Source of the DNA: an uncultured bacterium
Lineage (GTDB): Bacteria > Bipolaricaulota > Bipolaricaulia > UBA7950 > UBA9294
Reading direction: 5' to 3'
DNA: 32,847 nucleotides
Assembly: GCA_965602415.1 (NCBI GenBank)
Contig: CBFCYU010000002.1
Coordinates: 1-32,847, forward strand
The notes under the pieces: generated by a model
The model's input: only the letters and a program-made list of their open reading frames with translations
Database searches by the model: none
What the model was told of the DNA's origin: nothing
Shown: one piece after another, positions 8,274 through 30,522 of the stretch
Numbering within the stretch: the first letter of the stretch is position 1
Layout: the number at the start of each line of letters is the position of its first letter
Made by a program: the position numbers and the translations under genes

Positions 8274-8311
8274 GGCGGAGGCTCGGCCACTCATCGCTTG
8301 GAGCCTCCGCC
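8274..8311 (-). terminator. intercistronic GC-rich stem-loop directly after the binding-protein gene (mRNA stabiliser or partial terminator)
   Basis: Perfect 11-bp stem, GGCGGAGGCTC (8274-8284) with GAGCCTCCGCC (8301-8311), and a 16-nt loop. It starts 9 nt after the SBP stop (8321). No U-tract follows on the minus strand. Confidence 0.6.
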
Positions 8312-8320
8312 GATTGCGAG

Positions 8321-9286: not shown

Positions 9287-9412
9287 CACGACACCTCCCT
9301 GATTCGCCTCTGATCTTCGTGTATCCACCTACCTCCGCTTTCTGCCCGTACAAGCTCGTTCCATCACCTCCCTGGTCGTCAAGTGAGCCAAGAAACCTCA
9401 ACTACAGCATCC

Positions 9413-11834: not shown

Positions 11835-11840
11835 TGAATC

Positions 11841-11869
11841 AGTATGGCACACCGTTGGCATTTTGTCAA
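11841..11869 (-). promoter_or_regulatory. putative gntR1 promoter, TTGACA-N17-CATACT, predicting a leaderless transcript
   Basis: Minus-strand TTGACA (11869-11864), 17-nt spacer, CATACT (11846-11841). Only 6 nt then remain before ATG 11834, with no SD. Confidence 0.5.
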
Positions 11870-11963: not shown

Positions 11964-12683
11964 GTGCTCGTTCAGTTCTCGTATCCCCTAACCTCAAATC
12001 ACCTTGTCATGCCCGGTCCGATCGACCCCCCCGTAGTGATCCCTCGGTCCCGGATGGTCGCGAAGCCCGCTGACGGAGAGGATGCCGTTCGCTGGGCTTC
12101 GTACAACAACACCAGCTTCGTCCATGCGTTCGTGCACTCCGGTACACACCTGGATGTGAACTTCCACGTAGATCCCAACGGCAGCAAGCTCGGCGCATTT
12201 GAGATTGCGGACTTCGTCGCCGATCGGCCGATCCTCCTAGAGATCCCGAAGGGTGACATGGAGGAGATCACGGTCGAGGAGCTTCGCGAGCATGAGCCGG
12301 AGCTGCGGAACGCTGACTTCCTCTTCGTCTACACGGGCTACTCGGAGTACAGAAGCGCCGATCCCGAGCGCTACCTGACCAAGCAGCCGAGCTTCTCCAT
12401 TGCTGCTGCTGAGTACCTGATGCAGGAGCTCGACCTGAAGGGCGTGTGCGTCGATCTCATCGGCATCGAGAACATCGGCCGTGCGAAGACACTCGATCCC
12501 CAATTCCCTGTTCACAAGGCGTTTCTCACGTTCGGCCGGAGATTCTACGTCGTTGAGGACGCGGACGTGAGGGCCGTTGTGGGAAAGAAGCTGCTGCGTT
12601 CCTACGCGATACCGCTGCTTCTTCCCGACGCGGAAGGGATGATGGTGACTGGGTTTGCTGACATCGAAGAGGAATCTCCGTGA
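11964..12683 (+). CDS. putative cyclase-family metal hydrolase (kynurenine-formamidase-like fold)
   Basis: 239 aa, GTG start behind AGGAGG. Family signature HxGTHxDxxxH present as HSGTHLDVNFH. Substrate unknown. Confidence 0.7.
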   Translation: MLVQFSYPLTSNHLVMPGPIDPPVVIPRSRMVAKPADGEDAVRWASYNNTSFVHAFVHSGTHLDVNFHVDPNGSKLGAFEIADFVADRPILLEIPKGDMEEITVEELREHEPELRNADFLFVYTGYSEYRSADPERYLTKQPSFSIAAAEYLMQELDLKGVCVDLIGIENIGRAKTLDPQFPVHKAFLTFGRRFYVVEDADVRAVVGKKLLRSYAIPLLLPDAEGMMVTGFADIEEESP

Positions 12684-13054
12684 AGATTGAGCACATCGGC
12701 CTCCACGCGCGGAACACGACGGCTCTTGCGGAGTGGTATGTAGGTACCGTCGGCCTGCACATCGTGCGGCGTTTGGAGAAGCCAAGTCGTCCAACGATCT
12801 ACTTCCTCGCAGCAGCAGGGGGTGGCGAGATAGAGATCCTTCCAACGGAGGAAACCCGCGCCGAGCGAGCCCTCAATGCGCCCGGCCTAAGCCACATTGG
12901 TCTGGTGGTCGAGGACTTCGAGGCGACGGAGGCACACCTTAGGGAGAACGGAGTCCATCTTCAGGGAGTCCGAGACACAAGCAATGGCTGGCGAATCGGG
13001 TACTTCGAAGACCCGGAGGGCAATACGCTCGAGATCGTCCGACGCCCGCGGTAG
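12680..13054 (+). CDS. VOC-family protein (glyoxalase I / bleomycin-resistance / dioxygenase fold)
   Basis: 124 aa. Paired beta-alpha-beta-beta-beta modules with candidate metal ligands: IEHIGLHA, GEIEIL, LSHIGLVV, FEDPEGNTLEIV. GTGA overlap with the cyclase stop (12680-12683). Confidence 0.8.
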   Translation: MKIEHIGLHARNTTALAEWYVGTVGLHIVRRLEKPSRPTIYFLAAAGGGEIEILPTEETRAERALNAPGLSHIGLVVEDFEATEAHLRENGVHLQGVRDTSNGWRIGYFEDPEGNTLEIVRRPR

Positions 13055-13136
13055 GCCTCAGTGCCTGGTATGGAATCGGAAGCGGACGTTGGTGAAGGGC
13101 AAAGGAACGCTGGGGGAACAAGTGCCTACTCAAGAC

Positions 13137-13436
13137 ATGCGGGAGGGGCCGGGAACCCTCTTTGTGCGAGCGGAGAACTGCCGGGGATGCCGAAGCTGTC
13201 AGCTGGCCTGTTCATTCGAAAGGAACGGCGTCTTCAATCCAGGTCGTTCGATGATCGTGATGGAGCGCGATCTCGTGAACGGAAGGGCCGCCCCGATGAT
13301 CAAGCCGCTTGGGTGCGATCTGTGCGGCGGAGATCCGGTCTGCGCGAAGGCATGCAAGTATGGCGCCATCACCTACGAAGCGGGATCAAGTCAGAACAAG
13401 GTCGTCGTGCGTTCGTGGAGCAAGGAGGGATCGTGA
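13137..13436 (+). CDS. 2x[4Fe-4S] ferredoxin-type electron-transfer subunit, coupled to AOR
   Basis: C-terminal part of track ORF 12897..13436. Two cluster motifs: CRGCRSCQLAC (CxxCxxCxxxC) and CDLCGGDPVCAKAC. Start uncertain: ATG 13137 (MREGPGTLFVRAENCRGC) or GTG 13092, which is preceded by GGAAGCGGA. Confidence 0.75.
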   Translation: MREGPGTLFVRAENCRGCRSCQLACSFERNGVFNPGRSMIVMERDLVNGRAAPMIKPLGCDLCGGDPVCAKACKYGAITYEAGSSQNKVVVRSWSKEGS

Positions 13437-15385
13437 CGCGACCGACGACTTGGATCGTACGTGTCGACCTGGCGACGGGAGCCGTCGAACGCTCTCCGGT
13501 GGACGATTCTCTCAATCGAGCTTTCTTGGGAGGCCCGGGCGTCGGTTGGCGGTTGATGGCAGACGCTCTTGCACCCGGGATCGACCCGCTTTCACCTGAG
13601 AACGTGATCTGCATCAACCCCGGGGTGCTCGTCGGCACCCTCACGCCTGGGACGCCGAAGACGACCGTGATCACGAAGTTCCCCACGGAGGCGTCGGAAG
13701 ACGGGAAGCACTTCGTCGGTGCATGCACCGCCGGAGGGCGCTACCTCGGCGTCGCCCTCAAGCGCGCCGGTTGCCACCATCTCTTGATCACGGGGAAGGC
13801 CGAGAGGCCCTCCGTGTTGAGGATTCGCGATGAGAGCATCGATCTCGTCGATGCGTCCGACTACTGGGGTCGCGGAATCGAGGACGTGATGGTCGATCTC
13901 GTCAAACGAGAAGGACCCGAGTCCGGCACGATCATCATCGGCACTTCAGGAGAGAACCTCGTTCGCCATGCCTTGACGATTGTCGACCGCACAAACTCGC
14001 TCGGACGGGGTGGACTCGGCGCGGTGATGGGCTCGAAGAACCTCAAAGCGATCGTCGTCAACGGGACGGGAGACGTCGAGGTTGCCGACCCCGCGCGGTT
14101 CATCGAGGCGTCGGAACGGCTCCGCGACTACGTGATGCAGTGGCCTCGCAGGGAGCACTGGATCGACTTGGGCCTCGCCGCCGGTTGGAGCACGTTCAAG
14201 CACACGCAGTACCCCGGCATCTGGCCGAAGGATCGGTGGGACAAGCTCTACGGCGATGAGACGCGGATGGAGACCGTCGAGGACGTCATCGGCTGCAATT
14301 CGTGCATCCTCGGATGCCGCTTACGCTGGAAGACGAAGGGCGGGGAATTCGACGGCGAGGTCGGATTCGGGTCCCCGTTCAGCAAGAGCGCGACCTCGGG
14401 GATGCTTCTCGGCGAGGAAGATTTCCGCAAGATGATCCATTTCGTCGCGGATGCCAACTCGAGAACCGGAATCGATTTCTACACGACGACCCGGCTGATC
14501 GACTTCGTCACGAAGATGCACGAGATGGGACGGCTGACCTCCGAGCAGACCGGCGGTCTCGAGCTCTCCCGCGACTACGCCACGTACGAGAAGCTCTACG
14601 AGATGACGGTCAACAGAGAGGGCTTCGGCGACGTTCTTGCCGACGGATGGATGCGACTTAAGCGCAACTTCGGTCTCGATCCCCAGGAGTACTGGTATGC
14701 CGGGATCTGCAAAGGAGTCGACTTCATTTACGACGCACGACCGTCGAACTTCCATCCGTTGATGATGACGTTCACCACGCGTCCGCGACCTCATCACGGA
14801 GGATCACACACCCGAACGAACAGCCGAAACAAGACGATCGAGGAGATTCGCGATCAGGTCGAACGATGGGGATTGGCGAAGGAGACAGTCGATCACATCT
14901 TCACCGAATCCGACCACAGCGGGAAGTTCAACGTCGGTCGCTACACCCGCTACATGGAAGACATGATGCGGGTCAAGAACGCGATTGGATTGTGCACGAT
15001 CTACACGTATCAGGGACTGCTGTTCGGGGACGACATCGCCGAGCTGTACGCGGCCTCCACCGGTCATGAGATGACGGCGCTCGGGATGGTGGAGTGCGGG
15101 GAGCGAATCCACAACGTCTCGAAGCTGATCAACGTGCGCGAAGGGTTCAGCCGAGCCGATGACACCATTCCCGAGGTCTGGTTCCGACCGATGGAATCGC
15201 CAGAGGGTCGGATTGTGATGGAGGACTACTACCAGACCAAGCCTCTCACCAAGGCCGATACCGACAAGATCCTCGACGACTACTACGACGAACGCGGATG
15301 GGATGCAGAGACCGGCTGGCCGACGAGCGCGAGGTTGAAGGCACTCAAGCTCGAGAGCTTCACGGCCGAATTGGCTCCCGGATAG
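13433..15385 (+). CDS. aor: aldehyde:ferredoxin oxidoreductase family enzyme (tungsto/molybdopterin plus [4Fe-4S])
   Basis: In-frame part of track ORF 13061..15385. GTG 13433 behind AAGGAGGGA, with GTGA overlap on the ferredoxin stop. AOR signatures: LGGPGVGWRLM (N-domain), GAVMGSKNLKAIVVNG, CNSCILGC (CxxCxxxC cluster ligands), NAIGLCTIY. ~650 aa, typical for the family. Confidence 0.88.
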   Translation: MTRPTTWIVRVDLATGAVERSPVDDSLNRAFLGGPGVGWRLMADALAPGIDPLSPENVICINPGVLVGTLTPGTPKTTVITKFPTEASEDGKHFVGACTAGGRYLGVALKRAGCHHLLITGKAERPSVLRIRDESIDLVDASDYWGRGIEDVMVDLVKREGPESGTIIIGTSGENLVRHALTIVDRTNSLGRGGLGAVMGSKNLKAIVVNGTGDVEVADPARFIEASERLRDYVMQWPRREHWIDLGLAAGWSTFKHTQYPGIWPKDRWDKLYGDETRMETVEDVIGCNSCILGCRLRWKTKGGEFDGEVGFGSPFSKSATSGMLLGEEDFRKMIHFVADANSRTGIDFYTTTRLIDFVTKMHEMGRLTSEQTGGLELSRDYATYEKLYEMTVNREGFGDVLADGWMRLKRNFGLDPQEYWYAGICKGVDFIYDARPSNFHPLMMTFTTRPRPHHGGSHTRTNSRNKTIEEIRDQVERWGLAKETVDHIFTESDHSGKFNVGRYTRYMEDMMRVKNAIGLCTIYTYQGLLFGDDIAELYAASTGHEMTALGMVECGERIHNVSKLINVREGFSRADDTIPEVWFRPMESPEGRIVMEDYYQTKPLTKADTDKILDDYYDERGWDAETGWPTSARLKALKLESFTAELAPG

Positions 15386-15644
15386 CCGGATGAGATGCAT
15401 TTCGCGGTGCGTCACGGTCCGTTCGCCCCGTTGAGATAACGTGCGGGTTGGAGATGGCTTTGGGCGAGATTCGGGTTTCTTCGTACACGCGTGATGACGA
15501 TGGTGCCGTGCCACTCCACAGCAGGTCGACACGAGATCTGCTGGCGTTCTCGCAGCGACTTCCGGGATCTACGGGGGCGGGGGGCACCCATTGTGCGCTC
15601 GTTTGGATGGGCGTTGTGGGCTCACTGCAGGCCGATGTCCGGGG

Positions 15645-15672
15645 TTGCGGAGCGCGCAAGTGACGATATAAT
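15645..15672 (+). promoter_or_regulatory. putative iclR promoter with consensus -10 TATAAT; predicts a leaderless mRNA
   Basis: TATAAT at 15667-15672 is exactly 7 nt from the A of ATG 15680, with no SD. A weak -35 TTGCGG at 15645-15650 gives a 16-nt spacer. Confidence 0.55.
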
Positions 15673-15679
15673 TGACACA

Positions 15680-16522
15680 ATGTCGCATATAACTGAAAGA
15701 AGACGGGTCAACGGATCGGTGGTCAAGGCGCTCTCCGTGCTGGAGGCGTTCCGGCCGGACCGCGATCAGCTCAGTGCAGCAGAGATCGGAGAAGCGACCG
15801 GGCTCTCCCGGGGGTCCCTCTATCCGATTCTGTATGCTCTTGAGGACCATGGGTACCTCCGTCGTCCCGCGCCCCGGACGTACACGATCGGTTTTCGCTT
15901 CATCGAACGGGCGAACCTTGTCCTCCGGAAGCTGGGCATTCACGAGAGTGCACGCCCGTCACTCCAAGCGTTGGCTTCGACCCTTCGAGTGAACGCGCAT
16001 CTCGGCGTCCTCAACGGGCGTGAGGCCCTTCACCTCCATCGAGAGGTCGGAGCGGACGCTGTCGTCGTCGGGGAAATCGTCGGCTGGCAGGCCCCTGCCT
16101 ATTGCACAGCGCTGGGCAAGGCTCTGCTGGCTCATCTCCCGGAGGAAGAGCTGCGAGCACGCCTTTCGCCGGGATCCCTCGTTCGTCACACACCTGCGAC
16201 CATCACCGAAGTTGACCGGCTGGTGCAGGAGACGCGGAGAATCGCCGCGGACGGATACGCGATCAGCCATGAGGAGTATCACGAAGGGATTGTCGGGATT
16301 GCATCCGTGGTCCGGGGTGCCGGCGGCGATGCGAGTTGCGCAATCAGCATCTCGGTCACCAAGCCTCGATTCGACCGAGAGCGGGAAGTGCTCATCGGCG
16401 CGGTGCAGCGAGCTGCGGATGAGATCTCCGAACAACTCCGCATGCGACACATGGAGCCCGTGTCAGGACGGCTCCCCAAGACGGATCACGGGCCGAACGA
16501 ACGATCGAAACAAGGAGGCTAG
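15680..16522 (+). CDS. IclR-family transcriptional regulator (KdgR-like context)
   Basis: In-frame part of track ORF 15491..16522. wHTH (VVKALSVLEAFRPDRDQLSAAEIGEATGLSRGSLYPILYALEDHGYLRR) and an IclR effector domain (YCTALGKALLAHL, HEGIVGIASVV). Confidence 0.88.
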   Translation: MSHITERRRVNGSVVKALSVLEAFRPDRDQLSAAEIGEATGLSRGSLYPILYALEDHGYLRRPAPRTYTIGFRFIERANLVLRKLGIHESARPSLQALASTLRVNAHLGVLNGREALHLHREVGADAVVVGEIVGWQAPAYCTALGKALLAHLPEEELRARLSPGSLVRHTPATITEVDRLVQETRRIAADGYAISHEEYHEGIVGIASVVRGAGGDASCAISISVTKPRFDREREVLIGAVQRAADEISEQLRMRHMEPVSGRLPKTDHGPNERSKQGG

Positions 16523-16527
16523 ACACA

Positions 16528-17412
16528 ATGGAACCCAAGATTTCGGGAATCATCCCGCCACTACTGACCGCGTTCGACAAGAACGGTGCATTCGACGAGA
16601 AGGCGCAGCGCGAGATTGTCTCGTTCCTCGTCGACAAGGTGCAGGGATTCTATCCCTGTGGAACGTACGGCTCCGGACCGCTCATGAGCGTCGACGAGCG
16701 CAAGCGCGTCGCCGAGGTGGTCATCGATGAGGTCAACGGGCGCGTGCCGGTCATTCTGCACGTCGGCGGGCCGACGACTCGGTTCGGGGTCGAACTCGCT
16801 CAACATGCTGAAAAGGCGGGAGCCGTCGCGGTCGCCTCGGTGCCGCCGATCTACTACGGCTTCAAGGAGCCCGAGGTCGAGCGCCACTTCAAGGCGTTGG
16901 TCGACGCGGTCGACGTTCCGGTCTTGGTCTACAACAACCCGAAGACAACGGGCGTGTCGATCTCGGCGGATTTCCTCAACCGGCTCGCCAAGCTCGGCGT
17001 GCGAGGCGTGAAGGACTCGAGTTTCGACATCATGGTCTTCTACACGTACCTGTGGACGGTGGAGCGCAAGGACTTCATCCCCGTCATCGGAACAGAGGCC
17101 CTCATCTACCCCGCGGCGGGAATGGGAGCGTTCGCATCGGTCTCCGGACTGGCCAACGCGATCCCCGAACCGGTGGTCGAGCTGTTCAATGCGGTGAAGG
17201 CCGGTAATGTGGAGAAGGCACGCCCGCTGCAGCAGCGCGTCTCTGCAATGCGCGATGTGATGCATCTTGGGCCGACCCTGACGATGATCCAGGCCATCCT
17301 CCACAAACGAGGCGTCAACGCCGGATATCCGCGCCTGCCGTTCGTGGTCCCCGATGAAGCTCTGGTGAGCAAAGCGGTCGAGGCCTTCCGGGCGCTTGGC
17401 GTGGCATTCTAG
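16528..17412 (+). CDS. DHDPS/NAL-family class I aldolase, closest by eye to archaeal KD(P)G aldolase type
   Basis: 294 aa, AAGGAGG upstream. Family residues: VLVYNNP (Tyr) and GVKDSS (Schiff-base Lys). The usual bacterial GTTGE motif reads GTYGSGP. Together with VPPIYYG and GYPRLP, this resembles my recollection of Sulfolobus KDG aldolase (GTTGLGP, YAPYYY, GYPRPP). Confidence 0.8.
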   Translation: MEPKISGIIPPLLTAFDKNGAFDEKAQREIVSFLVDKVQGFYPCGTYGSGPLMSVDERKRVAEVVIDEVNGRVPVILHVGGPTTRFGVELAQHAEKAGAVAVASVPPIYYGFKEPEVERHFKALVDAVDVPVLVYNNPKTTGVSISADFLNRLAKLGVRGVKDSSFDIMVFYTYLWTVERKDFIPVIGTEALIYPAAGMGAFASVSGLANAIPEPVVELFNAVKAGNVEKARPLQQRVSAMRDVMHLGPTLTMIQAILHKRGVNAGYPRLPFVVPDEALVSKAVEAFRALGVAF

Positions 17413-17428
17413 AGACTGGAAGGTGATC

Positions 17429-18406
17429 ATGCGCGCGGTGCTGGTCAGCTCTCGCTCGTTCGGGAACGTCCTGACGATCGGCAACGACCTCCTCCGTGAC
17501 GCCGGATTCAAGGTGCGCAGGGTTGGTGAGGAGGAGCGCCCACTCGACGAAGCGAAGCTCGCCTCCATCGTTCACCGCGAGAGACCAGAGGTCATCATCA
17601 CGGGAGCCGAGTCCGTCTCGGAGACCGTGCTCGGGGCTTCTGACAGCCTGCGCATGATCATGAAGCACGGCGTCGGGGTCGACAACATCGACCTCGGCGC
17701 CGCTACCTCTCGCGGCATCGCCGTTGCCAACGCGCCCGGTACCAACACCGAAGCGGTCGCCGATCTTACGTTCGGCTTCATCCTGTCCCTGCTACGCCGC
17801 ATCTGCACCGCCAATGCAGCGACGCGAAGCGGTAGCTGGGAGAGGTACATGGGCCATGAGCTCGGGGCGATGACCCTAGGGATTGTCGGCACCGGCCGGA
17901 TCGGCGCCATCGTGGCACGCCGCGCCCACGCCTTCGGTGCAAGCCTGCTCGGGTGCGACGTGGTCCAGAACGAGGCGCTGAAATCGGGTTGCGGCATGCA
18001 CTACGTTCCGCTCGACGACCTTCTTCGGCAGGCTGACGTGGTCACACTTCATGCCCCGCTCATGCCTCAGACCAGAGGAATGATCGGAAAAACACAGCTG
18101 GAATCGATGAAGCCCTCAGCGTTGCTCGTCAATTGCGCACGAGGAGAGCTCGTGGACGAGGGCGCGCTCTGCGAGTGCCTGCAGACCGGAGGCATCGCGG
18201 GGGCCGCCGTCGACGTCTTCGCCACCGAGCCGCCGCGGGACAGCCCGCTCCTCGAGCTCGACACCGTCATCGCCACGCCGCACATCGCTGCCTACACGTA
18301 CGAGGCAATGGATTCGATGGATCGCTTGTGCGCCGAGACAATCAGCGACGTACTCCTCCTAGGGCGAATCCCGGGCAATCTCATCAACCCAGAGGTCATG
18401 CGATAA
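17429..18406 (+). CDS. D-isomer-specific 2-hydroxyacid dehydrogenase (glyoxylate/hydroxypyruvate/phosphoglycerate dehydrogenase-like)
   Basis: Track ORF 17396..18406. ATG 17429 behind GGAAGGTGA. NAD motif GIVGTGRIG. Catalytic Arg/Glu/His context: NCARGELVD, DVFATEP, TPHIAAYT. Confidence 0.85.
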   Translation: MRAVLVSSRSFGNVLTIGNDLLRDAGFKVRRVGEEERPLDEAKLASIVHRERPEVIITGAESVSETVLGASDSLRMIMKHGVGVDNIDLGAATSRGIAVANAPGTNTEAVADLTFGFILSLLRRICTANAATRSGSWERYMGHELGAMTLGIVGTGRIGAIVARRAHAFGASLLGCDVVQNEALKSGCGMHYVPLDDLLRQADVVTLHAPLMPQTRGMIGKTQLESMKPSALLVNCARGELVDEGALCECLQTGGIAGAAVDVFATEPPRDSPLLELDTVIATPHIAAYTYEAMDSMDRLCAETISDVLLLGRIPGNLINPEVMR

Positions 18407-19417: not shown

Positions 19418-19981
19418 CTATCGATCCACCAAGCTCGGTCCGCCAATGCCCCGCTTCACCCGCTTCGGAAACCCTTCCGTCTGAATGTCTCCGTAGTTGT
19501 GCCCGGCGTGAGCAGGATAGACACAGAACGAGATCAACGGCTCATCCCCCGTGTTGATCGAGCGGTGAGCCCAATCGGGGGGGGCGTAGATGAGGCGCCC
19601 CGCCTCCATTGGCTGTGCGTCCCATCGACCGTCGCACGTCTTCATGAGCATGAATCCCCTGCCACGCATGCATAGGTACGTCTCCGCGGTACCGGAGACG
19701 GTGTGGTAGTGGCCCTTGGTCATGAAGTACTCGTCTCCCACCTGCCCAGGTTCAAGCACGCTCATGCAGAAGAGGAGATGTCCCTTCTCCTCGGGGATCG
19801 CCTTCTCGTAGACGCGGTAGTGAACCGGATCGCACAGCGCGATCAACGCTTCAAGCGCTTCGGCATCGGCGTAGTACCCCCGCAGGTCGGAAGCACGGCG
19901 GATCACGATACGATCCGCGTCTTCCATCGTCCCGGTTGTGAAGTCGATCGCTACACCGAACGGAACATCGTACGGTTGCAT
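19418..19981 (-). CDS. cupin-type phosphoglucose isomerase (archaeal cPGI family)
   Basis: 187 aa. Colinear with my recollection of Pyrococcus cPGI: PFGVAIDFTTG, RRASDLRGYY, FMTKGHYH, YAPPDWAHRSINTGDEP, YPAHAGHNYG (His/Glu metal ligands of the cupin). Confidence 0.88.
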   Translation of the reverse strand: MQPYDVPFGVAIDFTTGTMEDADRIVIRRASDLRGYYADAEALEALIALCDPVHYRVYEKAIPEEKGHLLFCMSVLEPGQVGDEYFMTKGHYHTVSGTAETYLCMRGRGFMLMKTCDGRWDAQPMEAGRLIYAPPDWAHRSINTGDEPLISFCVYPAHAGHNYGDIQTEGFPKRVKRGIGGPSLVDR

Positions 19982-19984
19982 TCG

Positions 19985-20998
19985 CTATCCTCCTCCCGTC
20001 GGCACGGACCTCGCTCGTGCCGCTACGGCGGAGAGGTTGTCGAATTGCGGTCCGGACATCGGGATGTCGATCCCGAAAGAGGGCTTTGATTTACTCGATT
20101 TGCCTGACCCGAAAACCTTGCTGATCACCCGCGTCCAGCCGTGGATGAAGTACGTCCATCCGTCTTCGATCATCAGGCCTCCGGATTCCCGCTGTCGCCT
20201 TGCCTGCTCGAGGAAGTGGAGGTCTCCTCGGTAGTTGAAGTCCCACACGCGGCCACCTTGTGGGAACAAGGCGGCCTCCGTCAGCGGCGACCCGGGACGA
20301 TCCTTCCCCAACCCCGTGGCATTCGCGACGAGTGAACCGGGCGCCATGTCCGAACAGATGCGGTCATTCTCGGCGGAAGCTGGCGAGTGGACGTACTCGA
20401 CATCCACGCCGGCATCGAGCGCCCGGTGAACCTCGCGCATCTTGCTCAGTCGTCCCGGGCTGCGGTTTGTGATCACGATCCTTCGCGGATGCGGGCGCTC
20501 GGCCCCGGCCCGCTCCAGTAGATTGACCGACAGCGCAAGCGACGATCCCCCCGCTCCAAGGATGAGCACCGCGGCCCCCCCGGCCCAATGGGCCGCGGGG
20601 GCGGAGGGGTCCCGCGCCAATCCGCTAGAGATTGGATCCATAGCCGTGCCAATCAAATGCCCGTCCTGCTTCGAGATACAGCTGACCTCGCCGAGCCGCT
20701 CCGCGTACGGTCCGAGGACATCGAACAGGTCGCGGGCCGCTTCGAGCAGGTCTAACTTGTGCGTGGTCACGAGCGCCCCCATCGACAGCGGATCGGTCTT
20801 GATATGCTCAACAATCCGGCAGTACCGCTCCGGACTGTCGTGCAGGGCGAAATCGACCCCCACGATCTCCGCTTCGAGCCCGAGCACGTCGGCCCAGCGC
20901 GGGAACACGCGCATGATCGACGACTGGGTCGTCGTCACGCCGATGAAGTAGATCGTCGGCACTCGGCGCGGCCCGGAGATGGCGCTCATCCCGTCCAT
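19985..20998 (-). CDS. shikimate/quinate dehydrogenase-like NAD(P) oxidoreductase (AroE family, divergent)
   Basis: 337 aa. IGVTTTQSSIMRVFP, GALVTTHK (catalytic Lys position), GTAMDP (Asp position) and Rossmann motif VLILGAGGSSLA. Only 3 nt separate it from the downstream cPGI gene. True substrate unknown. Confidence 0.7.
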   Translation of the reverse strand: MDGMSAISGPRRVPTIYFIGVTTTQSSIMRVFPRWADVLGLEAEIVGVDFALHDSPERYCRIVEHIKTDPLSMGALVTTHKLDLLEAARDLFDVLGPYAERLGEVSCISKQDGHLIGTAMDPISSGLARDPSAPAAHWAGGAAVLILGAGGSSLALSVNLLERAGAERPHPRRIVITNRSPGRLSKMREVHRALDAGVDVEYVHSPASAENDRICSDMAPGSLVANATGLGKDRPGSPLTEAALFPQGGRVWDFNYRGDLHFLEQARRQRESGGLMIEDGWTYFIHGWTRVISKVFGSGKSSKSKPSFGIDIPMSGPQFDNLSAVAARARSVPTGGG

Positions 20999-21836: not shown

Positions 21837-22514
21837 TCAACCATCCTTCCCTTGTGTGAGTTCGCTTGCGCCAAACGCGTGTACGTAGTCCTTGTGGAAT
21901 TTCAATGTGGCGGCCTCGACGGCGGGATTGGAGCAGATCTTCGAGACCACGTTCGATTGGATGGCCGCGTACCCGGCGCCCGCCTTCCACGCCAGCATCA
22001 GCTCCTCGGGGGTCCGGACGCTGGCCGCGATCACGTCGGCCTGAAGATCGTGCTGCTCCACGAGGTCGACGATGTCAGCGACGACCCGGCATCCGTCCCC
22101 GCCGACGTCGTAGATGCGCGCCATGTAGGGCGCGAGGAAGATTGCGCCGGCCCGCGCAGCGAGCAGTGCCTCATTGGCGGCGCAGATCACGGTCGCAGTG
22201 ATGCGGACCCCTTCCGAAGCCAGCGCATGGATCGCCTCGACTCCCGCGGCCGTAACGGGGATCTTGACAACGACCCGTTCCGGGTCGATCGCCGAAAGAC
22301 ACCGCCCTTCTTGGATCATCTCAGCGGCCGACAGCCCCGCGACCTGGATGAAGACCGGATCCGGCACGATATCGAGCACGCTTCGGACGAGTTTCTCCGA
22401 CGAAAGCCCCGCCTGTGCTACCAGACTCGGATTACTCGCCACACCGACGAACACCCCAAGCCGGTAGAGGTCCCTGACCTCGTCTGGTTCCGCGGATATC
22501 AGGATCAGTTTCAT
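21837..22514 (-). CDS. fructose-6-phosphate aldolase / type-3B transaldolase-like class I aldolase
   Basis: C-terminal 225 aa of track ORF 21837..22682, from ATG 22514 (MKLILISAEPDEV). Motifs: GVASNPS, VVVKIPVT (Schiff-base Lys), LAARAGAIFLAPYMARI. ATGA overlap with the upstream CMD gene. Confidence 0.85.
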   Translation of the reverse strand: MKLILISAEPDEVRDLYRLGVFVGVASNPSLVAQAGLSSEKLVRSVLDIVPDPVFIQVAGLSAAEMIQEGRCLSAIDPERVVVKIPVTAAGVEAIHALASEGVRITATVICAANEALLAARAGAIFLAPYMARIYDVGGDGCRVVADIVDLVEQHDLQADVIAASVRTPEELMLAWKAGAGYAAIQSNVVSKICSNPAVEAATLKFHKDYVHAFGASELTQGKDG

Positions 22515-22852
22515 GCCTCGCCCTCTCGATGCGCCTCGATCGCCGCCAGTACCGCTCCCATATGCGCCAGTGCGGGTCCGCCGTCCATGATGACGGCGAC
22601 GAAGGCCGCCTCCATGATCTCGTCCTCCACCGCGCCCGCTGCCACCGCGGAGCGAACATGATACGAGATGCATCGTTCGCATCCCTTGACGAGGGAGATC
22701 GCAATCGCAATGAGTTCTTTGTTTTTTCTCGAGACGGTTCCGTCAGCGTGGGCCGCAGCGGTGAACCGTCGCCACGCGGAAAGCGTCTTCCCGTGCGGTG
22801 TGGCTGACAACTGCTTCATCGTCTCCGCTAGTTCCTCGGTCATCCGCTGCAT
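22511..22852 (-). CDS. carboxymuconolactone decarboxylase (CMD)/AhpD-like family protein with CxxC
   Basis: C-terminal 113 aa of track ORF 22511..23155, from ATG 22852 (MQRMTEELAETMKQL). KELIAIAISLVKGCERCISYHV is the family helix carrying CxxC..H. The upstream part of the track ORF overlaps DeoC-like B in another frame. Confidence 0.75.
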   Translation of the reverse strand: MQRMTEELAETMKQLSATPHGKTLSAWRRFTAAAHADGTVSRKNKELIAIAISLVKGCERCISYHVRSAVAAGAVEDEIMEAAFVAVIMDGGPALAHMGAVLAAIEAHREGEA

Positions 22853-22866
22853 GCTCTCGGCGCGAC

Positions 22867-23601
22867 TCACGAGCCCGCCTCCTTCTCGGTTGCCATCCAC
22901 TCCATCGCGCGCAGCAGGCCGGCTCGGACCGGGATAGCGACACGATCGGCGCCAGCATCGAGGAGTTCGTTCACCGCCTGGATCGTCGTCACTCCTCCGG
23001 CCGCCTTCAATTTCAGGCCCTCCCCGACCAATCCGCGAAGCGACTCGAGGACGCCCACACTCGCGGATCCTTCGGCATCCGGATCGGTGGACACGATGCG
23101 GAACCCGACCGTATTCACCACGTACTCGAATCCCTGGTTCGCAGCGATGCTGCACGCCTCACGAATCCGGGACGAGCTGAGCAGCCCGGCTTCGAGGACA
23201 AGTTTCAATGTGATTTCGCCCGTCGCGCGGCGGATTTCGGCCAGTTCGTGGCCTACCACGTCCCAGCGCTCCGCCAGGATCGTGCCAAAATGCGGTACCA
23301 CATCGAGCTCGCGTGCCCCGTCTTCCACGGCCGCCTCGGCCTCTCGCGCCTTGACACTCGCCGACTGGCTGCCAAACGGATAGCTGATGACAGTCGCGAC
23401 CGAGGGACCACCCCGTCCCACACACACCGCGGCGCGACGAACGAGTGCGGAGGGGACAACCACCGTCCTGAAACCGCACACCGCCGCCTCGCAGCACATC
23501 GTCTCAAGATCACGATACGTGATGGTCTTGCGAAGGTCCGTGTATTCGATCGAGTCCGCGACCCGGGGAAGCGCAGCCCTGATCTTCTCGTGTCCGCTCA
23601 T
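22867..23601 (-). CDS. DeoC/LacD-family class I aldolase-like protein, paralog B (no Lys at the canonical Schiff-base position)
   Basis: 244 aa, DERA-like throughout: IEYTDL, VATVISYPFG, GARELDVV, ITLKLVLEAG, LKLKAAGGV, GADRV. Where DERA has F[IV]KTSTG, it reads EYVVNTVGF. Confidence 0.8.
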   Translation of the reverse strand: MSGHEKIRAALPRVADSIEYTDLRKTITYRDLETMCCEAAVCGFRTVVVPSALVRRAAVCVGRGGPSVATVISYPFGSQSASVKAREAEAAVEDGARELDVVPHFGTILAERWDVVGHELAEIRRATGEITLKLVLEAGLLSSSRIREACSIAANQGFEYVVNTVGFRIVSTDPDAEGSASVGVLESLRGLVGEGLKLKAAGGVTTIQAVNELLDAGADRVAIPVRAGLLRAMEWMATEKEAGS

Positions 23602-24302
23602 CCGAGGGCCTCCTTCGCTTCATCGAGGACCCGGAAGATCGGGCTGGCATGGATGTTGTCGGTGCCCGCCTTGAAGTACGCGAGCGCATGTTCGAGCGAG
23701 CGCACTCCTCCGGAGACATCGATCTGGAACGTCTCTCCGAACGTTCGGCAGATGAACGCGACGTCCTCGATGCACGTGTTCCAGCCGTAACCCGAAGAGG
23801 TCTTGATCCCTCCGACACCCCCTTCGGCGTACGCTTCCAGGGTCCGAGCCAGCGCATCACGCGTCAGGATTGCGGTCTCCGGAATGACCATCACCCAGAT
23901 CTCGCCGGCCGCCGCGTCGATCATCGCCTTGGCGTCTTCGCGAACGGCATCGAAGTCGCCCGACATGATCGCGCTGAAGTTCCCGCCGATGTCGATCTCC
24001 TCCGCTCCAAGTCGCACGCCCTCCCGGATCGCGGCCACCTTGGCCTCGATCGACCAGTTGCCGACCGGATACGCCGCCTCGACACCGATTCGGATGCCGA
24101 GCGGTGAGAGGATCTCCCGTGCCAGATCGACCCACGGTTGATCGACGAAGATCGCATCAATCGGCGGGTAGTCGGCGAAGCGACGAAGAAACGCCCGGGC
24201 CTCCTCCTCGGTGGCCGCGGGAGAGAACGTCGCCGTCATCATCCGGTTGGCAAACGCCTCCGCTGTTGTCGGAGCGCCGCGCGGTTTGCGATTTCCTTCC
24301 AT
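23598..24302 (-). CDS. DeoC/LacD-family class I aldolase-like protein, paralog A (Schiff-base Lys motif present)
   Basis: C-terminal 234 aa of track ORF 23598..24596, from ATG 24302 behind GGGAGAGGAG. Motifs: GAEEIDIG, IWVMVIPET, GGIKTSSGYG, FQIDVSGGV. Its stop overlaps the paralog B start (ATGA, 23598-23601). Confidence 0.78.
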   Translation of the reverse strand: MEGNRKPRGAPTTAEAFANRMMTATFSPAATEEEARAFLRRFADYPPIDAIFVDQPWVDLAREILSPLGIRIGVEAAYPVGNWSIEAKVAAIREGVRLGAEEIDIGGNFSAIMSGDFDAVREDAKAMIDAAAGEIWVMVIPETAILTRDALARTLEAYAEGGVGGIKTSSGYGWNTCIEDVAFICRTFGETFQIDVSGGVRSLEHALAYFKAGTDNIHASPIFRVLDEAKEALG

Positions 24303-24324: not shown

Positions 24325-25854
24325 CTAGTCGGCCATCTCCCGCTGCATCGCCACGAGCTCCCCGAACAACGGCTCCAGTGCGCCATACGCCTGATTGAAG
24401 AGCGTGAATGCCCGGTCGTACGCCGATTTCCGCTCCGCGATCGGGTGATCCGTCCCGGCGATCGGCGACAGCGTCGCGGCGACGCTGAAGTCATCGAACA
24501 CGCCGACGCCCACGCCGGCACACACCGCGGCACCGAGAGAGGTCGCGAACTCACCGCTCTCGAGCCGCTCGATCGGAATCCCCAGCATGTCTGCAAGCGC
24601 TTGGCAGAGCACCGGGTTCCGGATTCCCCCGCCGATCATCCGCAGAGAGTCCAGCTGCCCGCCTTGTTCGGTCAGCGCCTCGAAGATGATACGCAAGTTG
24701 AACCCTACTCCCTCGAGGACGGCACGCACGAGGTCTCCTGCTCCGTGGCTGCGCGCAAGGCCGACAAACGCGCCACGCGCATCCTCATTCCAGTGTGGAC
24801 TCCGCTCGCCGATCAGGTACGGAAGGAACAACAAGCCATGCGCGCAGGCGGGCGACGACGATGCCCACCGGTTGAGGAACGCGTACCCCTCGTCCGTCGT
24901 CTTTCCCAGCTCCTCGGGGAAGAAGACCTCTCGGATCCAATCGTACGAGCCGCCGGCGCTCTGCATCGTGCCGACAGGCATGTAGAGGTTCGGCTCGAGG
25001 TGACAGAGGTTGAACGTTCGCATCCCCGGATCGAACACCGGTTCACTCGTCGCAATCGCGATCCAAGACGAGGATCCGAGGTAGTTGTACCCTTCATTGG
25101 CGCGGATCACACCCGCGCCAACTGTAGCGCAGGCCCCGTCCCCTCCGCCGAGGACGACGGGAACGCCTTCGATATCCACTCCGTCCGCCACCTTCACCGG
25201 TCCGATCACGGTTGACGATGGCAACGCCTCGGGAAAGAGTCGTCCGGGAATCCCGCCGGCCGAGAGGAGATCATCGCTCCATGCCTTGGTGGAAAGGTCG
25301 AAGGCGTTGGTCGCTGAGGCGTCCGAGTAGTCGGTGGCGAACCGGCCGGTCAGACGCGCGACGATGTAGTCCTTCGATTGCAGCACGAACCGCGTCTTCG
25401 CGTAGATCTCGGGCTCGTTGTCCCGAATCCACATGATCTTCTCGAGTGTGTAGTTGGGGTTGGGTCGCGTGCCGGTGATGCGGTAGATCTCCTCCGGCGT
25501 CATCGACCGCAGCAGCGAGGCCACTTGGTCGCTCGATCGCGTGTCCGCCCAGATGATCGCACGCCGCAGGGCCCTTCCCGATTCATCGACCGGGACGCAA
25601 CCCATCATGTGCCCGCTGAAGCTCATCGCGGCAATCGACGACTTGGTGATCCCCGCCTGTTCCATCACCGCAGCGGATGCCCGGCAGACGGCGAGCCACC
25701 AGGCGTCGGGATCCTGTTCGACCCACCCCGGGCGGTCGTAGTACGTCGGGTAGGTTTCCAGAGCGCTGGCGACCAGGGTGCCGTTTTCGTCGAACAACGT
25801 CGCCTTGTTCCCGGTGGTCCCAAGATCGTGTGCGAGCAGGTACGCGCTTGCCAT
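24325..25854 (-). CDS. FGGY-family carbohydrate kinase (xylulokinase-like), copy 2
   Basis: 509 aa. LLAHDLGTTGNKATLF, GWVEQDPDAWW, VVLGGGDGACATVGAG, RMIGGGIRN. Clear paralog of the 9413..10981 kinase. Confidence 0.9.
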   Translation of the reverse strand: MASAYLLAHDLGTTGNKATLFDENGTLVASALETYPTYYDRPGWVEQDPDAWWLAVCRASAAVMEQAGITKSSIAAMSFSGHMMGCVPVDESGRALRRAIIWADTRSSDQVASLLRSMTPEEIYRITGTRPNPNYTLEKIMWIRDNEPEIYAKTRFVLQSKDYIVARLTGRFATDYSDASATNAFDLSTKAWSDDLLSAGGIPGRLFPEALPSSTVIGPVKVADGVDIEGVPVVLGGGDGACATVGAGVIRANEGYNYLGSSSWIAIATSEPVFDPGMRTFNLCHLEPNLYMPVGTMQSAGGSYDWIREVFFPEELGKTTDEGYAFLNRWASSSPACAHGLLFLPYLIGERSPHWNEDARGAFVGLARSHGAGDLVRAVLEGVGFNLRIIFEALTEQGGQLDSLRMIGGGIRNPVLCQALADMLGIPIERLESGEFATSLGAAVCAGVGVGVFDDFSVAATLSPIAGTDHPIAERKSAYDRAFTLFNQAYGALEPLFGELVAMQREMAD

Positions 25855-26963: not shown

Positions 26964-28397
26964 TTACCACGCCCGACGCTGAAGATAATTCCGGTACGGG
27001 ACCCGCTCCAGCGGCTTGATATCCATCCAGGCGGCGAATTCCAGCACCGCCTCGCTCAAGTCTCCCATCGCCAGAGGGAAGTGGTGCTCGAATCCATTGA
27101 CCACAACCGTGTTGGTGAAGTCGAGCGCAGAGACTGGCTCTTCCCCGCGCATCTTGAACTTGCCGACCCAGCCCCGGGTGCCCCGCGGGCTCGGCTTCGT
27201 GTCCCCGACCGTTTCGCCGGTCGCAAGCAGCAGTCGATTGCCCCCGTCGGTCAGGCGCATCAGGGTAAACGGCGTCTGTTTCAGCACCATGTCGAACGCC
27301 GCCGGCGCTGGACCGACCTGCCCGTCGTCACCCGCAGCCTCGATGATCGAATGGCGGCACTGAATGCAGTTCTCCGTCCAGCATGGGTGTCCGACGCCGC
27401 AATGCCAGAGCAGGATCGTGTCGTCCTCTGGATCGAGCGCAGACAGGTCCATCAGCACCGGCCGATCTCCGCCCATCGCCTTGAGGATCGCCATTGAGAC
27501 GGCGCTCGGCACGTCACCCTCGCACGCCGCAACGTATCCCTTCTGATTGAGTCGGCCGAGCGTGGTGCACGCCGTCAAGCCGTACAGCGCCTGGAAGTGC
27601 GGCCAGCATGCAATGCCCACCCCCGTGTAGTCGTTCTCCTCGATCAGGCGCTCGAACACCCTATAGACCCGCGCGAGCTTCATGAACTCGGCGGCCGACA
27701 CACCCTCGGCGGGAACCTCCGCCTGAATCTCTTCGGAAACCTTCGCAACCTCCGCTTCCGGCAGTGCGTCCGCCTGCGCGAGAAGCTCAGTCAGCTCGTG
27801 CCTGTCGACGGTGATGTCGAACTTCGATCGCAGCCGCCCGTCGTTCCAGTAGACGTCGTAGTACCCCTCCGGCGTTCCGCCAACGTTGGCGAACTTCGCT
27901 CCGTCGAGCGTCTTGATCGCCTTGAGCGCTCGGATCGTCGGATCGAATCGCTTGAGGAAGATGTCACTGTCCGGCAATCCGAAGTACCACTTGTACCTGA
28001 CGTTTCGCTCAGCGAGGTACGTGCCGAGAATGCCAGCGTAGAGATTCACCCCGCACAGCGAATTCAACCGCAGCGAGCCACCGGTGGTCTCCGGCTCAGG
28101 CATCGCCCACAGACCGAGCGGAACCCCAAGATCGGCGAACGCAGCGACGATCTCTCCACCGGCGAACGAGCAAGACTGAAGCAACATCATGTCGACGTCG
28201 GCCGTCCGCAGTTCGTCGCGAAACGCCGTACAGACATCGACGTTGTTCGTCGCAGCGGGCGCTGCGATCAGCTCGAAGCCCCATTCCTGCCCCAGTTTCC
28301 CGAGCGTATCGACCGCGCCGCGGTACAGCTCTTGCGAGAGCGCCTCGTCGAAGCAGTCATACCAGACGCCGGCGATTCCGATCTTCAGTTTGGACAC
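26964..28397 (-). CDS. L-fucose/L-arabinose isomerase-family sugar isomerase (unknown specificity)
   Basis: 477 aa, GTG start behind GAAGGAGG. N-terminal flavodoxin-like swivel region (KIGIAGVWYDCFDE), central ACEGDVPSAVSMAILKAM and C-terminal NGFEHHFPLAMGD. These resemble the FucI/AraA catalytic-domain metal-binding regions. Confidence 0.7.
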   Translation of the reverse strand: MSKLKIGIAGVWYDCFDEALSQELYRGAVDTLGKLGQEWGFELIAAPAATNNVDVCTAFRDELRTADVDMMLLQSCSFAGGEIVAAFADLGVPLGLWAMPEPETTGGSLRLNSLCGVNLYAGILGTYLAERNVRYKWYFGLPDSDIFLKRFDPTIRALKAIKTLDGAKFANVGGTPEGYYDVYWNDGRLRSKFDITVDRHELTELLAQADALPEAEVAKVSEEIQAEVPAEGVSAAEFMKLARVYRVFERLIEENDYTGVGIACWPHFQALYGLTACTTLGRLNQKGYVAACEGDVPSAVSMAILKAMGGDRPVLMDLSALDPEDDTILLWHCGVGHPCWTENCIQCRHSIIEAAGDDGQVGPAPAAFDMVLKQTPFTLMRLTDGGNRLLLATGETVGDTKPSPRGTRGWVGKFKMRGEEPVSALDFTNTVVVNGFEHHFPLAMGDLSEAVLEFAAWMDIKPLERVPYRNYLQRRAW

Positions 28398-29542: not shown

Positions 29543-30487
29543 CTAGAGATCGTAGTTCATCTCCGCCTCGGTCTCGTAGTTCGAGAGCACCAGCATCCAA
29601 GGGTTGATGTCGTAGTCGAGCACCTCCGGCAGCGTGCCGTTGATCACGTACAACGCCAGCTGCTCCATGGCGAGCCGCGCCATTTCGACCGGATACTGAA
29701 TGGTAGCATCCAATTCTCCGGCGATGAGCGCGTTCAGTCCGCCCGGAACGCCGTCGTACCCGACGACAATGACGTCATCGAAGTCGATGCCGGCATCGAT
29801 CATCGCCTGGATCGCTCCGAGTGCCGAATCGTCGTTCGCGCAGATGACTGCGTCGAAATCCCCGCCCGTCGAGGTGATCGCGTCTTCCATCACGCGAAGC
29901 CCCTCGTCCGGCGAGAACCGCCCGCTCTGCTCGTAGACGATTTCCAGTCCTGGATAGTGGACCAGCTGCGCCTTGATACCCAGCTCACGGTTGATCGCCG
30001 GCGACGAACCGAGTTCGCCGAGGATGTGAACGATCTTGCCGACGCCGTCCAGCTTGGAGGCAACGTACTCGAGCGCAAGTCGCCCGCCGAAGATGTCATC
30101 CGCTCCGACATGGAAAATGGTAGAATCCTGGTTGAAGGCCCGGCGGTCGAATGTGGCGACGGGGATCCCCGCAGCCGCAGCCGCTTCGATAACCGGCACA
30201 AGGACGTCGACGTTCAATGGGTTGACCAGAATTGCGTCAAACCCTTGGGCGATGAAGTTCTCCATGATTTCGACTTGCCGGGCCGCATCTCCTTGAGCGT
30301 TCTCAACAACCAGCTCGATCTCGTCATACTTGGCCGCCTCATCGATAACCGCCTGGTAGGCGTAGGTCATCCATGTGTAGGCGAGCGTCATGCAGGCGAA
30401 TCCTACCCGGTAGGTCGCCGCAGCTACATTGACCACGGGCACCGCGATCAAGCCGACAACGAGCAGCACTAGCAACGCACGTTTCAT
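29543..30487 (-). CDS. CUT2 sugar ABC transporter substrate-binding protein, second system
   Basis: Track ORF 29543..30517. ATG 30487 (MKRALLVLLVVGLIAVPVV...) behind AAGGAGGAAA. Type I PBP body (FDAILVNP, GIPVATFDR, VVGYDG). Signal-like N-terminus without a lipobox. Confidence 0.85.
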   Translation of the reverse strand: MKRALLVLLVVGLIAVPVVNVAAATYRVGFACMTLAYTWMTYAYQAVIDEAAKYDEIELVVENAQGDAARQVEIMENFIAQGFDAILVNPLNVDVLVPVIEAAAAAGIPVATFDRRAFNQDSTIFHVGADDIFGGRLALEYVASKLDGVGKIVHILGELGSSPAINRELGIKAQLVHYPGLEIVYEQSGRFSPDEGLRVMEDAITSTGGDFDAVICANDDSALGAIQAMIDAGIDFDDVIVVGYDGVPGGLNALIAGELDATIQYPVEMARLAMEQLALYVINGTLPEVLDYDINPWMLVLSNYETEAEMNYDL

Positions 30488-30522
30488 TAGCTTTCCTCCT
30501 TGTTGCTTAACAGTCACAAGCT

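Follow-up and report, generated by a model that had tools for sequence, protein, structure and literature searches.

Deoxyribose-phosphate aldolase (DERA or DeoC; EC 4.1.2.4, TIGR00126, PF01791) is a class I aldolase known from textbooks and used industrially as a biocatalyst, and it is regarded as a single-gene homo-oligomer. We analyzed two adjacent genes for DERA-like proteins, which we call A and B, in a 32,847-nucleotide stretch of DNA from an uncultured member of the Bipolaricaulota (contig CBFCYU010000002.1, positions 1 to 32,847; hereafter, the window). In E. coli DERA, the Schiff base forms on K167, whose pKa is believed to be perturbed by K201, and both lysines are reported to be critical (PMC6244999). 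Neither A nor B has both of these lysines. From their sequences and genomic distribution, we estimate a probability of about 50% that A and B form an obligate hetero-oligomer, in which A, its active site remodelled, is the catalytic subunit and B a partner that does not form a Schiff base.

Several described systems resemble this pair in part. In GatY/GatZ and KbaY/KbaZ, a catalytic aldolase subunit reportedly has an adjacent, non-catalytic partner for full activity or stability, as Brinkkoetter and colleagues are said to have described in 2002. The lsr operon for autoinducer-2 (AI-2) combines a CUT2 transporter, the FGGY kinase LsrK, and LsrF, a Schiff-base enzyme of the DeoC/LacD superfamily that acts on the phosphorylated product. 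LsrF is a single protein from another subfamily (it is a thiolase of about 290 amino acids), and we know of no paired paralogs in lsr operons. In vitamin B6 synthase, PDX1.3, a (β/α)8 enzyme with lysine chemistry, co-assembles with PDX1.2, a paralog described as non-catalytic (bioRxiv 10.1101/717082). According to another report, the aminotransferase Ser4/Ser5 is a hetero-oligomer of tandem paralogs, one of which lacks the catalytic lysine (PMC11726168). Full-text searches of the literature turned up nothing on bacterial DERAs that are paired, fused, heteromeric, or lysine-less, nor on the operon in the window.

Active-site residues of the two paralogs

The two genes and the signals between them are:

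24302 to 23598, minus strand: gene A, the A-type DERA-fold paralog, 234 amino acids (aa), ATG start
23601 to 22867, minus strand: gene B, the partner DERA-fold paralog, 244 aa, ATG start
23598 to 23601, minus strand: ATGA overlap of the stop codon of A (TGA, 23600-23598) with the start codon of B (ATG, 23601-23599), consistent with translational coupling
23609 to 23615, minus strand: Shine-Dalgarno sequence AAGGAGG for B as read from the sequence, within the 3' end of A and 7 nt 5' of the ATG of B

We take the ATG at 24302 to be the true start of A because it is preceded by the stretch GGGAGAGGAG, because the FGGY kinase gene ends at 24325, and because most homologs of A have 234 aa.

Against NCBIfam, A scores 114.1 bits with TIGR00126 (deoC), which is just under the cut-off of 117.3 bits, while B scores 124.9 bits, which is above it; of the two, only the protein that lacks the catalytic lysine passes. 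Pfam's DeoC matches A weakly (12.8 bits) and B in part (27 bits), and the other Pfam matches are weak and unrelated. When compared to the sequences in the PDB with phmmer, both proteins are similar to solved DERAs over nearly their full length (E = 7.6e-27 for A and E = 3.4e-24 for B). When B was modelled alone with AlphaFold, it formed a DERA barrel, with a predicted local distance difference test (pLDDT) of 90.9 and a predicted template modelling score (pTM) of 0.88; the best match to this model from Foldseek was 3ngj_A, with template modelling (TM) scores of 0.83/0.92. Judging from these matches, both proteins are (β/α)8 barrels with the DERA fold. A and B share only about 23% identity and are therefore old paralogs. 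A recent tandem duplication was also considered as their origin, and this low identity rules it out.

To assign the active-site residues, we aligned the proteins to solved DERAs with HMMER and, in a set that included E. coli DERA, with MAFFT. (In the E. coli sequence, D102, K137, K167, K201, and C47 land at the expected indices.) The equivalent positions are:

E. coli D16: M22 in A, E19 in B
E. coli T18: A24 in A, T21 in B
E. coli C47: F52 in A, V48 in B
E. coli D102: D104 in A, D100 in B
E. coli K137: M138 in A (WVMVIPE), K133 in B (TLKLVLE)
E. coli K167: K167 in A (GGIKTSSG), V162 in B (EYVVNTVGF)
E. coli T168: T168 in A, N163 in B (EYVVNTVGF)
E. coli K201: D195 in A (FQIDVSGG), K199 in B (LKLKAAGG)
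E. coli R207: R201 in A, T205 in B
E. coli G236: H218 in A, A222 in B
E. coli S238: S220 in A, P224 in B

The phosphate-binding motifs of A are intact (G171, S197-G198-G199-V200-R201, and S220), and those of B are degenerate, with T205 in place of R207 and P224 in place of S238. A has six lysines in total (residues 6, 88, 125, 167, 211, and 230) and B has seven (6, 25, 84, 133, 197, 199, and 240). An alignment artefact or a register shift that hides a lysine can be ruled out: the placements by HMMER and MAFFT coincide, and no lysine lies near the relevant strands. The key codons and the one segment that is specific to B are:

23802 to 23804, minus strand: AAG, Lys167 of A, the only lysine of the pair at the Schiff-base position
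23718 to 23720, minus strand: GAT, Asp195 of A, at the position of DERA's K201
23649 to 23651, minus strand: CAT, His218 of A, at the position of E. coli G236, gained in the clade
23113 to 23118, minus strand: GTG AAT, Val162-Asn163 of B, in place of Lys-Thr in the DERA motif F[IV]KTSTG
23005 to 23007, minus strand: AAG, Lys199 of B, equivalent to DERA's K201
23080 to 23100, minus strand: B-specific insertion past strand β6, R168-I-V-S-T-D-P174

Most of this had been anticipated by eye in an earlier, sequence-only reading of the window. That reading identified A and B as DeoC-like paralogs, which the phmmer matches now support, and noted their ATGA overlap, to which we add the Shine-Dalgarno sequence inside A. 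It also had A keeping K167 with Asp at the K201 position, B keeping the second lysine and not the first, the lysine of the LKVIIE motif kept in B and lost in A, and the Asp of ADE[VI]D in both proteins. The alignments agree on each of these assignments, and they place lysines at both catalytic positions in neither protein. One motif needed refinement: EYVVNTVGF in B does lack a lysine, with Val at the lysine's position and Asn in place of the Thr that follows.

Pairs, partners, and fusions across lineages

When GTDB species were scanned, each represented by one genome, gene A was detected in only nine species, all of them represented by metagenome-assembled genomes (MAGs) of the Bipolaricaulota type. 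In all nine, A is followed directly by B within one 13-gene operon, and the adjacency and the order are the same at the loci that we approached from the B side. The sequence-only reading had proposed a survey of co-occurrence; at every locus that we examined, the two genes are adjacent and in the same order.

Both families are well separated from ordinary DERAs. Homologs of A form 69 clusters at 54% identity or above, and those of B form 54 clusters at 44% or above; the next sequences below are, in both cases, only ordinary DERAs at 36% identity or less. The few names that are available for these clusters are of Candidatus Bipolaricaulota MAGs. The names given at NCBI run counter to which protein is likely to be catalytically competent: the B homologs P0095 and P0110 are named "deoxyribose-phosphate aldolase," while the A homologs P0052 and P0065, which keep the Schiff-base lysine, are named "hypothetical protein."

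We counted residues across 65 full-length clusters of the A family and 54 clusters of the B family. In the A family, K167, D195, H218, and S220 are invariant (65/65), and so is the motif KTSSGYGWN. G171 and SGGVR are kept together with K167 in all 65 as well, and M138 and D104 are nearly invariant (62/65 and 64/65). In the B family, the K167 position is never a lysine: it is Val in 26 of the 54 clusters, Ala in 14, Ser in 10, and Thr in 3. N163 and K199 are invariant (54/54), K133 is found in 51/54, and the D100 position is Asp in 43 and Glu in 10. The equivalents of R207 (Thr, Arg, or Ala) and of S238 (Ser, Pro, or Asn) vary. About 40 positions of the B family are invariant. Within its insertion, R168, V170, S171, T172, and P174 are at least 95% conserved; canonical DERAs have no such segment. 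The insertion is also the lowest-confidence internal segment when B is modelled alone (pLDDT of 70-77).

B evolves faster than A. The mean identity within the family is 52% for B and 71% for A, and identities between species are 48-66% for B and 68-89% for A. The rate of nonsynonymous substitutions (dN) is 0.26-0.50 for B, the highest in the operon, and 0.06-0.23 for A. The ratio of nonsynonymous to synonymous rates (dN/dS) for B is about 0.15-0.27, a rough figure as dS is saturated in most comparisons, so we used only the relative dN and the observation that dN/dS is well below 1. These rates indicate that B is relaxed yet clearly under purifying selection, and that it is not a pseudogene.

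We searched 1.84 billion representative proteins with a profile and classified the best 150 by their key residues. Only 41 matches had E ≤ 1e-30, and after them came thousands of ordinary DERAs. In the A-like clade, K167 is kept except in a few members with Cys, position 201 is Glu or Asp, position 137 is Val, Ile, or Met, position 140 is Pro (Ile in E. coli), and position 236 is His, which is nearly invariant. A related clade keeps K167 and has Met at position 201. Across the other A-type clades, the residue at the K201 position is Glu, Asp, Met, or His. In a neighbor-joining tree with capped distances and 100 bootstraps, A-type sequences and the N-terminal domains of the fusions (see below) formed one clade, with 73% bootstrap support, and the partners were not resolved from canonical DERAs. 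The residues that are specific to the A-type clade (Glu/Asp at 201, His at 236, and Pro at 140) indicate that its altered active site was selected and did not arise by decay.

In every A-type lineage that we examined (the window and 10 others, down to about 30% identity), there is a DERA-like gene directly downstream, or else the two are fused. The genes for A and its partner also overlap by 1-4 nt in L001, L016, L025, L026, and L027-L032 (locus names are ours). The residues at positions 167 and 201 are:

L001 pair 3: A-type Lys/Glu, partner Lys/Lys
L016: A-type Lys/Glu, partner Lys/Lys
L019/L020: A-type Lys/Glu, partner Lys/Lys
L021/L022: A-type Lys/Glu, partner Lys/Lys
L023: A-type Lys/Met, partner Lys/Lys
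L024: A-type Lys/Met, partner Lys/Lys
L026: A-type Lys/Glu, partner Lys at 167 (partial sequence, no call at 201)
L001 pair 1: A-type Cys/Glu, partner Ser/Lys
L025: A-type Cys/Glu, partner sequence partial

The partner is fully canonical (D16, T18, D102, K137, K167, K201, and S238) in L001 pair 3, L016, L019, L021, L023, L024, and the P0153 fusion. Because most partners are canonical, the reciprocal loss in the window reflects two separate events: by comparison of the lineages, K201 was lost early, in the ancestor of the A-type proteins, and the partner's K167 was lost later, in the B family of the Bipolaricaulota and in a few other lines. The sequence-only reading had treated the complementary losses as a meaningful unit, and these comparisons do not support that view. 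The loss of K201 is old, extends across the clade, and is found beside canonical partners too. Nor could two barrels simply complement each other, because K167 and K201 lie on neighboring strands of one barrel.

L001 (the same as L012; NODE_46, 95,681 bp) is a Bipolaricaulota-like contig with three different A-type/B-type pairs inside 11 kb, at 276-1635 (plus strand), 8001-9391 (plus strand), and 9631-11018 (minus strand). One is an ortholog of the window's pair, one has a fully canonical DERA as the partner of its A-like protein, and one lacks the Schiff-base lysine in both proteins. The latter belongs to an A-type subclade with Cys in place of Lys (motif ICTSWGYG, with Glu at the K201 position), which includes L001 276-977, L025 1765-2445, P0152, P0162, and P0233; the partner of the L001 protein (967-1635) has Ser at position 167. 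This subclade may have switched its nucleophile or may have a function other than aldolase, and none of the models that we considered accounts for it. A very long protein, P0170 (1288 aa), has a large, partly membrane-like N-terminal region, a canonical DERA domain (745-976), and a degenerate second DERA-like domain (1028-1270) with Ser at 167 and Thr at 201. Many of the canonical DERAs from the search of representative proteins (P0169, P0178, P0179, P0183, P0184, P0186, and others, of 430-504 aa) have N-terminal extensions of about 200-290 residues, some of which include a Cys-rich stretch.

There are two independent natural fusions, both in the order of the separate genes (A-type, then B-type). 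The family of P0158 (476 aa) has 32 full-length clusters, at 53-100% identity, and the names are of MAGs of Anaerolineae and Spirochaetes. Its N-terminal domain has K167 in 32/32 clusters, along with M201 and P140. Its C-terminal domain has Glu at position 167 in 32/32, Gln at 102, and Ser or Asn at 137, and it has K201 in only 20/32. After β6, the C-terminal domain has an insertion, GFGKFTPDG, that resembles GFRIVSTDP in B. Like A in the window, P0158 is encoded immediately downstream of an FGGY kinase. (In L013-L015, the fusion is followed by a conserved DUF7973 protein of 326 aa in 3/3 contigs, which may be a further component of the fused version.) The second fusion, P0153 (466 aa), joins an A-type domain, with K167 and H201, to a canonical DERA domain.

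With the family alignment as input, AlphaFold2 modelled P0158 with a mean pLDDT of 90.9 and a pTM of 0.86, and the segment equivalent to B's insertion had a pLDDT of 88-91. This pTM implies that the barrels are predicted to pack in a single defined arrangement. When we searched the PDB with this model, Foldseek matched each half to DERAs (TMt of about 0.9) and found no chain that spans both halves (TMq of at most 0.45).

A proposed heteromeric enzyme and the alternatives

A heteromer of A and B, with catalysis in A, is the most economical reading of these results, and it would descend from the homo-oligomer of DERA. In this lineage, Lys167 of A would form a Schiff base with a phosphorylated sugar from the upstream FGGY kinase, and only A would be catalytic. 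The apparatus of K201, K137, and D16 would be replaced in A by Asp195, His218, and Pro141-Glu142. From the topology of DERA, Asp195 and His218 should be on strands β7 and β8, beside K167 on β6, and they may stand in for the relay of K201, D102, and water. (In other class I aldolases, a carboxylate accompanies the Schiff-base lysine.) B would be unable to perform canonical Schiff-base chemistry, because its lysine is lost and its phosphate site is degenerate, and it would be kept as a structural or regulatory partner with a new conserved loop after β6. The substrate is likely the product that is phosphorylated by the kinase, which is XylB-like in sequence; in other lineages, a phosphotransferase system (PTS) would do the phosphorylation.

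The sequence-only reading had already offered two explanations: a heteromeric aldolase, or relocated catalytic residues with a new specificity. The first fits the genomic data (the invariant adjacency, the paired clade, the fusions, and the pTM of 0.86). The second seems apt for A at least, given Asp or Glu at the K201 position, His at E. coli G236, and Pro at E. coli I140.

Several observations weigh against the heteromer as we describe it. Adjacency, coupling, and fusion would also fit two enzymes for consecutive steps. B keeps more than a structural subunit would need, namely K199, K133, D/E100, T21, D/E19, and the invariant N163. By simple electrostatics, an Asp beside the Schiff-base lysine of A would raise the lysine's pKa and not lower it. 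In the subclade with Cys for Lys (L001 pair 1 and L025), the partner also lacks K167, and therefore the proposal that A supplies the Schiff base fails for some members. As for the fusions, the step from pTM to packing draws on general experience with AlphaFold rather than on a control run. Neither fusion family is orthologous to the window's pair, and the tree gives weak support to their positions beside the M201 clade and the B family.

The strongest alternative, which we consider unlikely, is that A and B are separate enzymes for consecutive steps on sugar phosphates and that their coupling balances expression. B might then be a catalyst via K199/K133, either as a Schiff-base or as an acid-base pair, or it might catalyze a non-covalent reaction of the isomerase or lyase type. 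Besides the retained residues of B, its purifying selection would be explained, and so would the complete, presumably active DERA that is the partner in most other lineages, which suggests two ancestral activities. Operons often couple the genes for successive steps, and such genes are sometimes fused. This alternative does not sit well with the C-terminal domain of P0158, which lacks D102, K137, and K167 (and has K201 in only 20/32 clusters), and so is not a DERA-type catalyst, yet is kept. The degenerate phosphate-binding residues of B argue against it too, as does B's rate of evolution, which is 2-4 times that of A and faster than for any other enzyme of the operon. Finally, 100% adjacency across distant lineages, together with two independent fusions, suits a complex better than a pathway link.

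The pairs might form a new class of two-barrel class I aldolases that divides the work between paralogous TIM barrels, in which A uses Lys with Asp/Glu and His (or, in one subclade, a Cys nucleophile) and the partner acts in trans, by means of the β6 insertion, allostery, or channelling. Such an enzyme would be active only as the heteromer, and on a sugar phosphate outside the range of known aldolases. We think that this is quite unlikely.

A composite active site, in which the β6 loop of B (R168-P174) or another part of B enters the barrel of A and takes over the function of K201, seems improbable. The insertion is specific to B and invariant, the fusion's C-terminal domain has a similar one, and the confidence of the modelled segment rises from 70-77 in B alone to 88-91 in the fusion; also, A-type proteins never have K201 and are never without a partner. 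But the canonical partners of most lineages lack the insertion, so it is not the general cause of pairing, and the active sites of DERA's TIM barrels are self-contained.

It is very improbable that the pair is a duplicated ordinary deoC for the catabolism of nucleosides or deoxyribose. Although both proteins score near or above the cut-off of TIGR00126, and B and several homologs of A are named "deoxyribose-phosphate aldolase" by some sources, neither has both of the lysines reported as critical (PMC6244999). The operon encodes a CUT2 transporter, a FucI/SftI-like isomerase, a zinc-dependent alcohol dehydrogenase (Zn-ADH), an FGGY kinase, an FSA/TalC-type protein, an aldo-keto reductase (AKR), and a cupin-type glucose-6-phosphate isomerase (PGI). 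There is no nucleoside phosphorylase or phosphopentomutase among the genes of the window's operon, and a canonical deoC is present in the same phylum (P0148).

That B is a decaying relic without a function, as its fast evolution and the variable residue at the lost lysine might suggest, is effectively refuted by the intact open reading frame in 54 clusters, the dN/dS well under 1, the roughly 40 family-invariant positions (including the newly gained insertion), the conservation of its own Shine-Dalgarno sequence and start/stop overlaps, and a confident predicted fold (pLDDT of 90.9).

The operon and comparison with described systems

In the nine species with A, and at the loci approached from the B side, the operon runs in the order ABC transporter ATPase, binding protein, permease (together, a CUT2 sugar transporter), FucI-like isomerase, Zn-ADH, FGGY kinase, A, B, CMD/AhpD-like protein, FSA/TalC-type protein, AKR, AroE-like protein, and cupin PGI. 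In the window, the binding protein is encoded at 29543-30517. The genes that flank the pair most closely are:

24325 to 25854, minus strand: FGGY sugar kinase directly 5' of A, closest to XylB (374.5 bits, against a cut-off of 380.25)
22511 to 22870, minus strand: CMD/AhpD-like CxxC protein (CERC), whose GTG start overlaps the stop of B (GTGA, 22870-22867)
21837 to 22514, minus strand: FSA/TalC-type protein of the transaldolase family, with the Schiff-base motif VVKIP present, whose ATG overlaps the stop of the CMD gene (ATGA, 22514-22511)

The kinase also matches autoinducer-2 kinase weakly (180 bits, far under the cut-off). The transaldolase-family gene and the AKR gene overlap as well (ATGGTTGA), so that, starting from the region at 21837-24302 (minus strand), A, B, CMD, the FSA/TalC-type gene, and AKR are chained by stop/start overlaps (ATGA, GTGA, ATGA, and ATGGTTGA). 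Some of these neighbors recur: FGGY kinases adjoin the pair or fusion in L013-15, L019/20, and L021, CMD genes adjoin A-type/B-type pairs in L001 and L019/20, and TAL_FSA genes do so in L001 and L025. The CMD protein may be part of the same functional unit as A and B.

The best curated match of the FucI-like isomerase (26964-28397, minus strand) is the sulfoquinovose isomerase SftI, at 169.8 bits against a cut-off of 700, and its combination with an FSA/TalC-type protein recalls the sulfo-transaldolase pathway. The P0153 fusion (L017, 7001-9116) adjoins a TauE-family exporter and sulfatases. As a lead only, on weak evidence, the operon may be linked to a sulfo-sugar or a 6-deoxy-sugar. The AroE-like protein (337 aa; 19985-20998, minus strand) has no match in Pfam and a weak match to AroE (shikimate dehydrogenase) in NCBIfam, at 37 bits, and it is followed by the cupin-type PGI (19418-19981).

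Elsewhere in the window (4660-11861 on the minus strand and 11964-18406 on the plus strand), another CUT2 ABC transporter is encoded, along with a GntR/UTRA regulator and another FGGY kinase, which shares 42% identity with the first; next to these are genes for a cyclase, an aldehyde:ferredoxin oxidoreductase, an IclR regulator, an aldolase of the dihydrodipicolinate synthase (DHDPS) family, and a 2-hydroxyacid dehydrogenase. Genes for aldehyde:ferredoxin oxidoreductase, cyclase, glyoxalase, DHDPS, and 2-hydroxyacid dehydrogenase flank A-type pairs in L001 and L021 too, which suggests a larger conserved island for sugar acids or aldehydes.

Judging from these comparisons, the A-type/B-type pairs are an always-paired, sometimes fused family that was previously undescribed; when we scanned nine A-type and fusion proteins against NCBIfam, they matched deoC only, and no specific family. 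Such a conserved family would show that the DERA fold has a second active-site design, with K201 changed to Asp, Glu, Met, or His and with a partner that ranges from canonical to lysine-less. If the heteromeric reading is true, then the pairs with a lysine-less partner would be bacterial enzyme–pseudoenzyme heteromers that evolved from a homodimer. There is also a consequence for annotation, since pipelines call the lysine-less B "deoxyribose-phosphate aldolase" and leave the lysine-keeping A as "hypothetical." The pair marks an uncharacterised operon for the catabolism of a sugar or polyol in Bipolaricaulota and other uncultured anaerobes. The pair might interest biocatalysis as well: Cys47 is the residue behind the inactivation of DERA by acetaldehyde, and both A and B lack it.

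Among known systems, the lsr operon is a parallel in context, with LsrK and LsrF corresponding to the kinase and the pair, but the window lacks LsrG. Ser4/Ser5 is a pyridoxal phosphate enzyme of fold type I, and both its chemistry and its fold are unrelated to those of the DERA pair. The sequence-only reading's analogy to GatY/GatZ and KbaY/KbaZ works for function only. GatY/GatZ is a class II, metal-dependent aldolase with another class of fold and no homology to DERA, and neither A nor B matched a Pfam family of that kind. Here, moreover, the catalytic subunit and its partner are paralogs, and the partner still looks catalytically complete in most lineages. PDX1.3/PDX1.2 is the closest conceptual parallel, but it is a eukaryotic dodecamer from another family of barrels, its genes are neither adjacent nor fused, and the pseudoenzyme PDX1.2 is a stress-induced regulator, unlike the window's pair.

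The closest relative by homology is canonical DERA itself. The fold is the same and D102 is found in both proteins; A keeps K167 and the phosphate motifs, while B keeps K201 and K137. Compared to DERA, A has gained the Asp, the His, and the Pro and lacks D16, K137, and C47, and B lacks K167 and S238 and has the β6 insertion. DERA is encoded by a single gene and forms homo-oligomers, whereas here there are always two genes or a two-barrel fusion, and the context is the uptake of a sugar or polyol instead of the catabolism of nucleosides.

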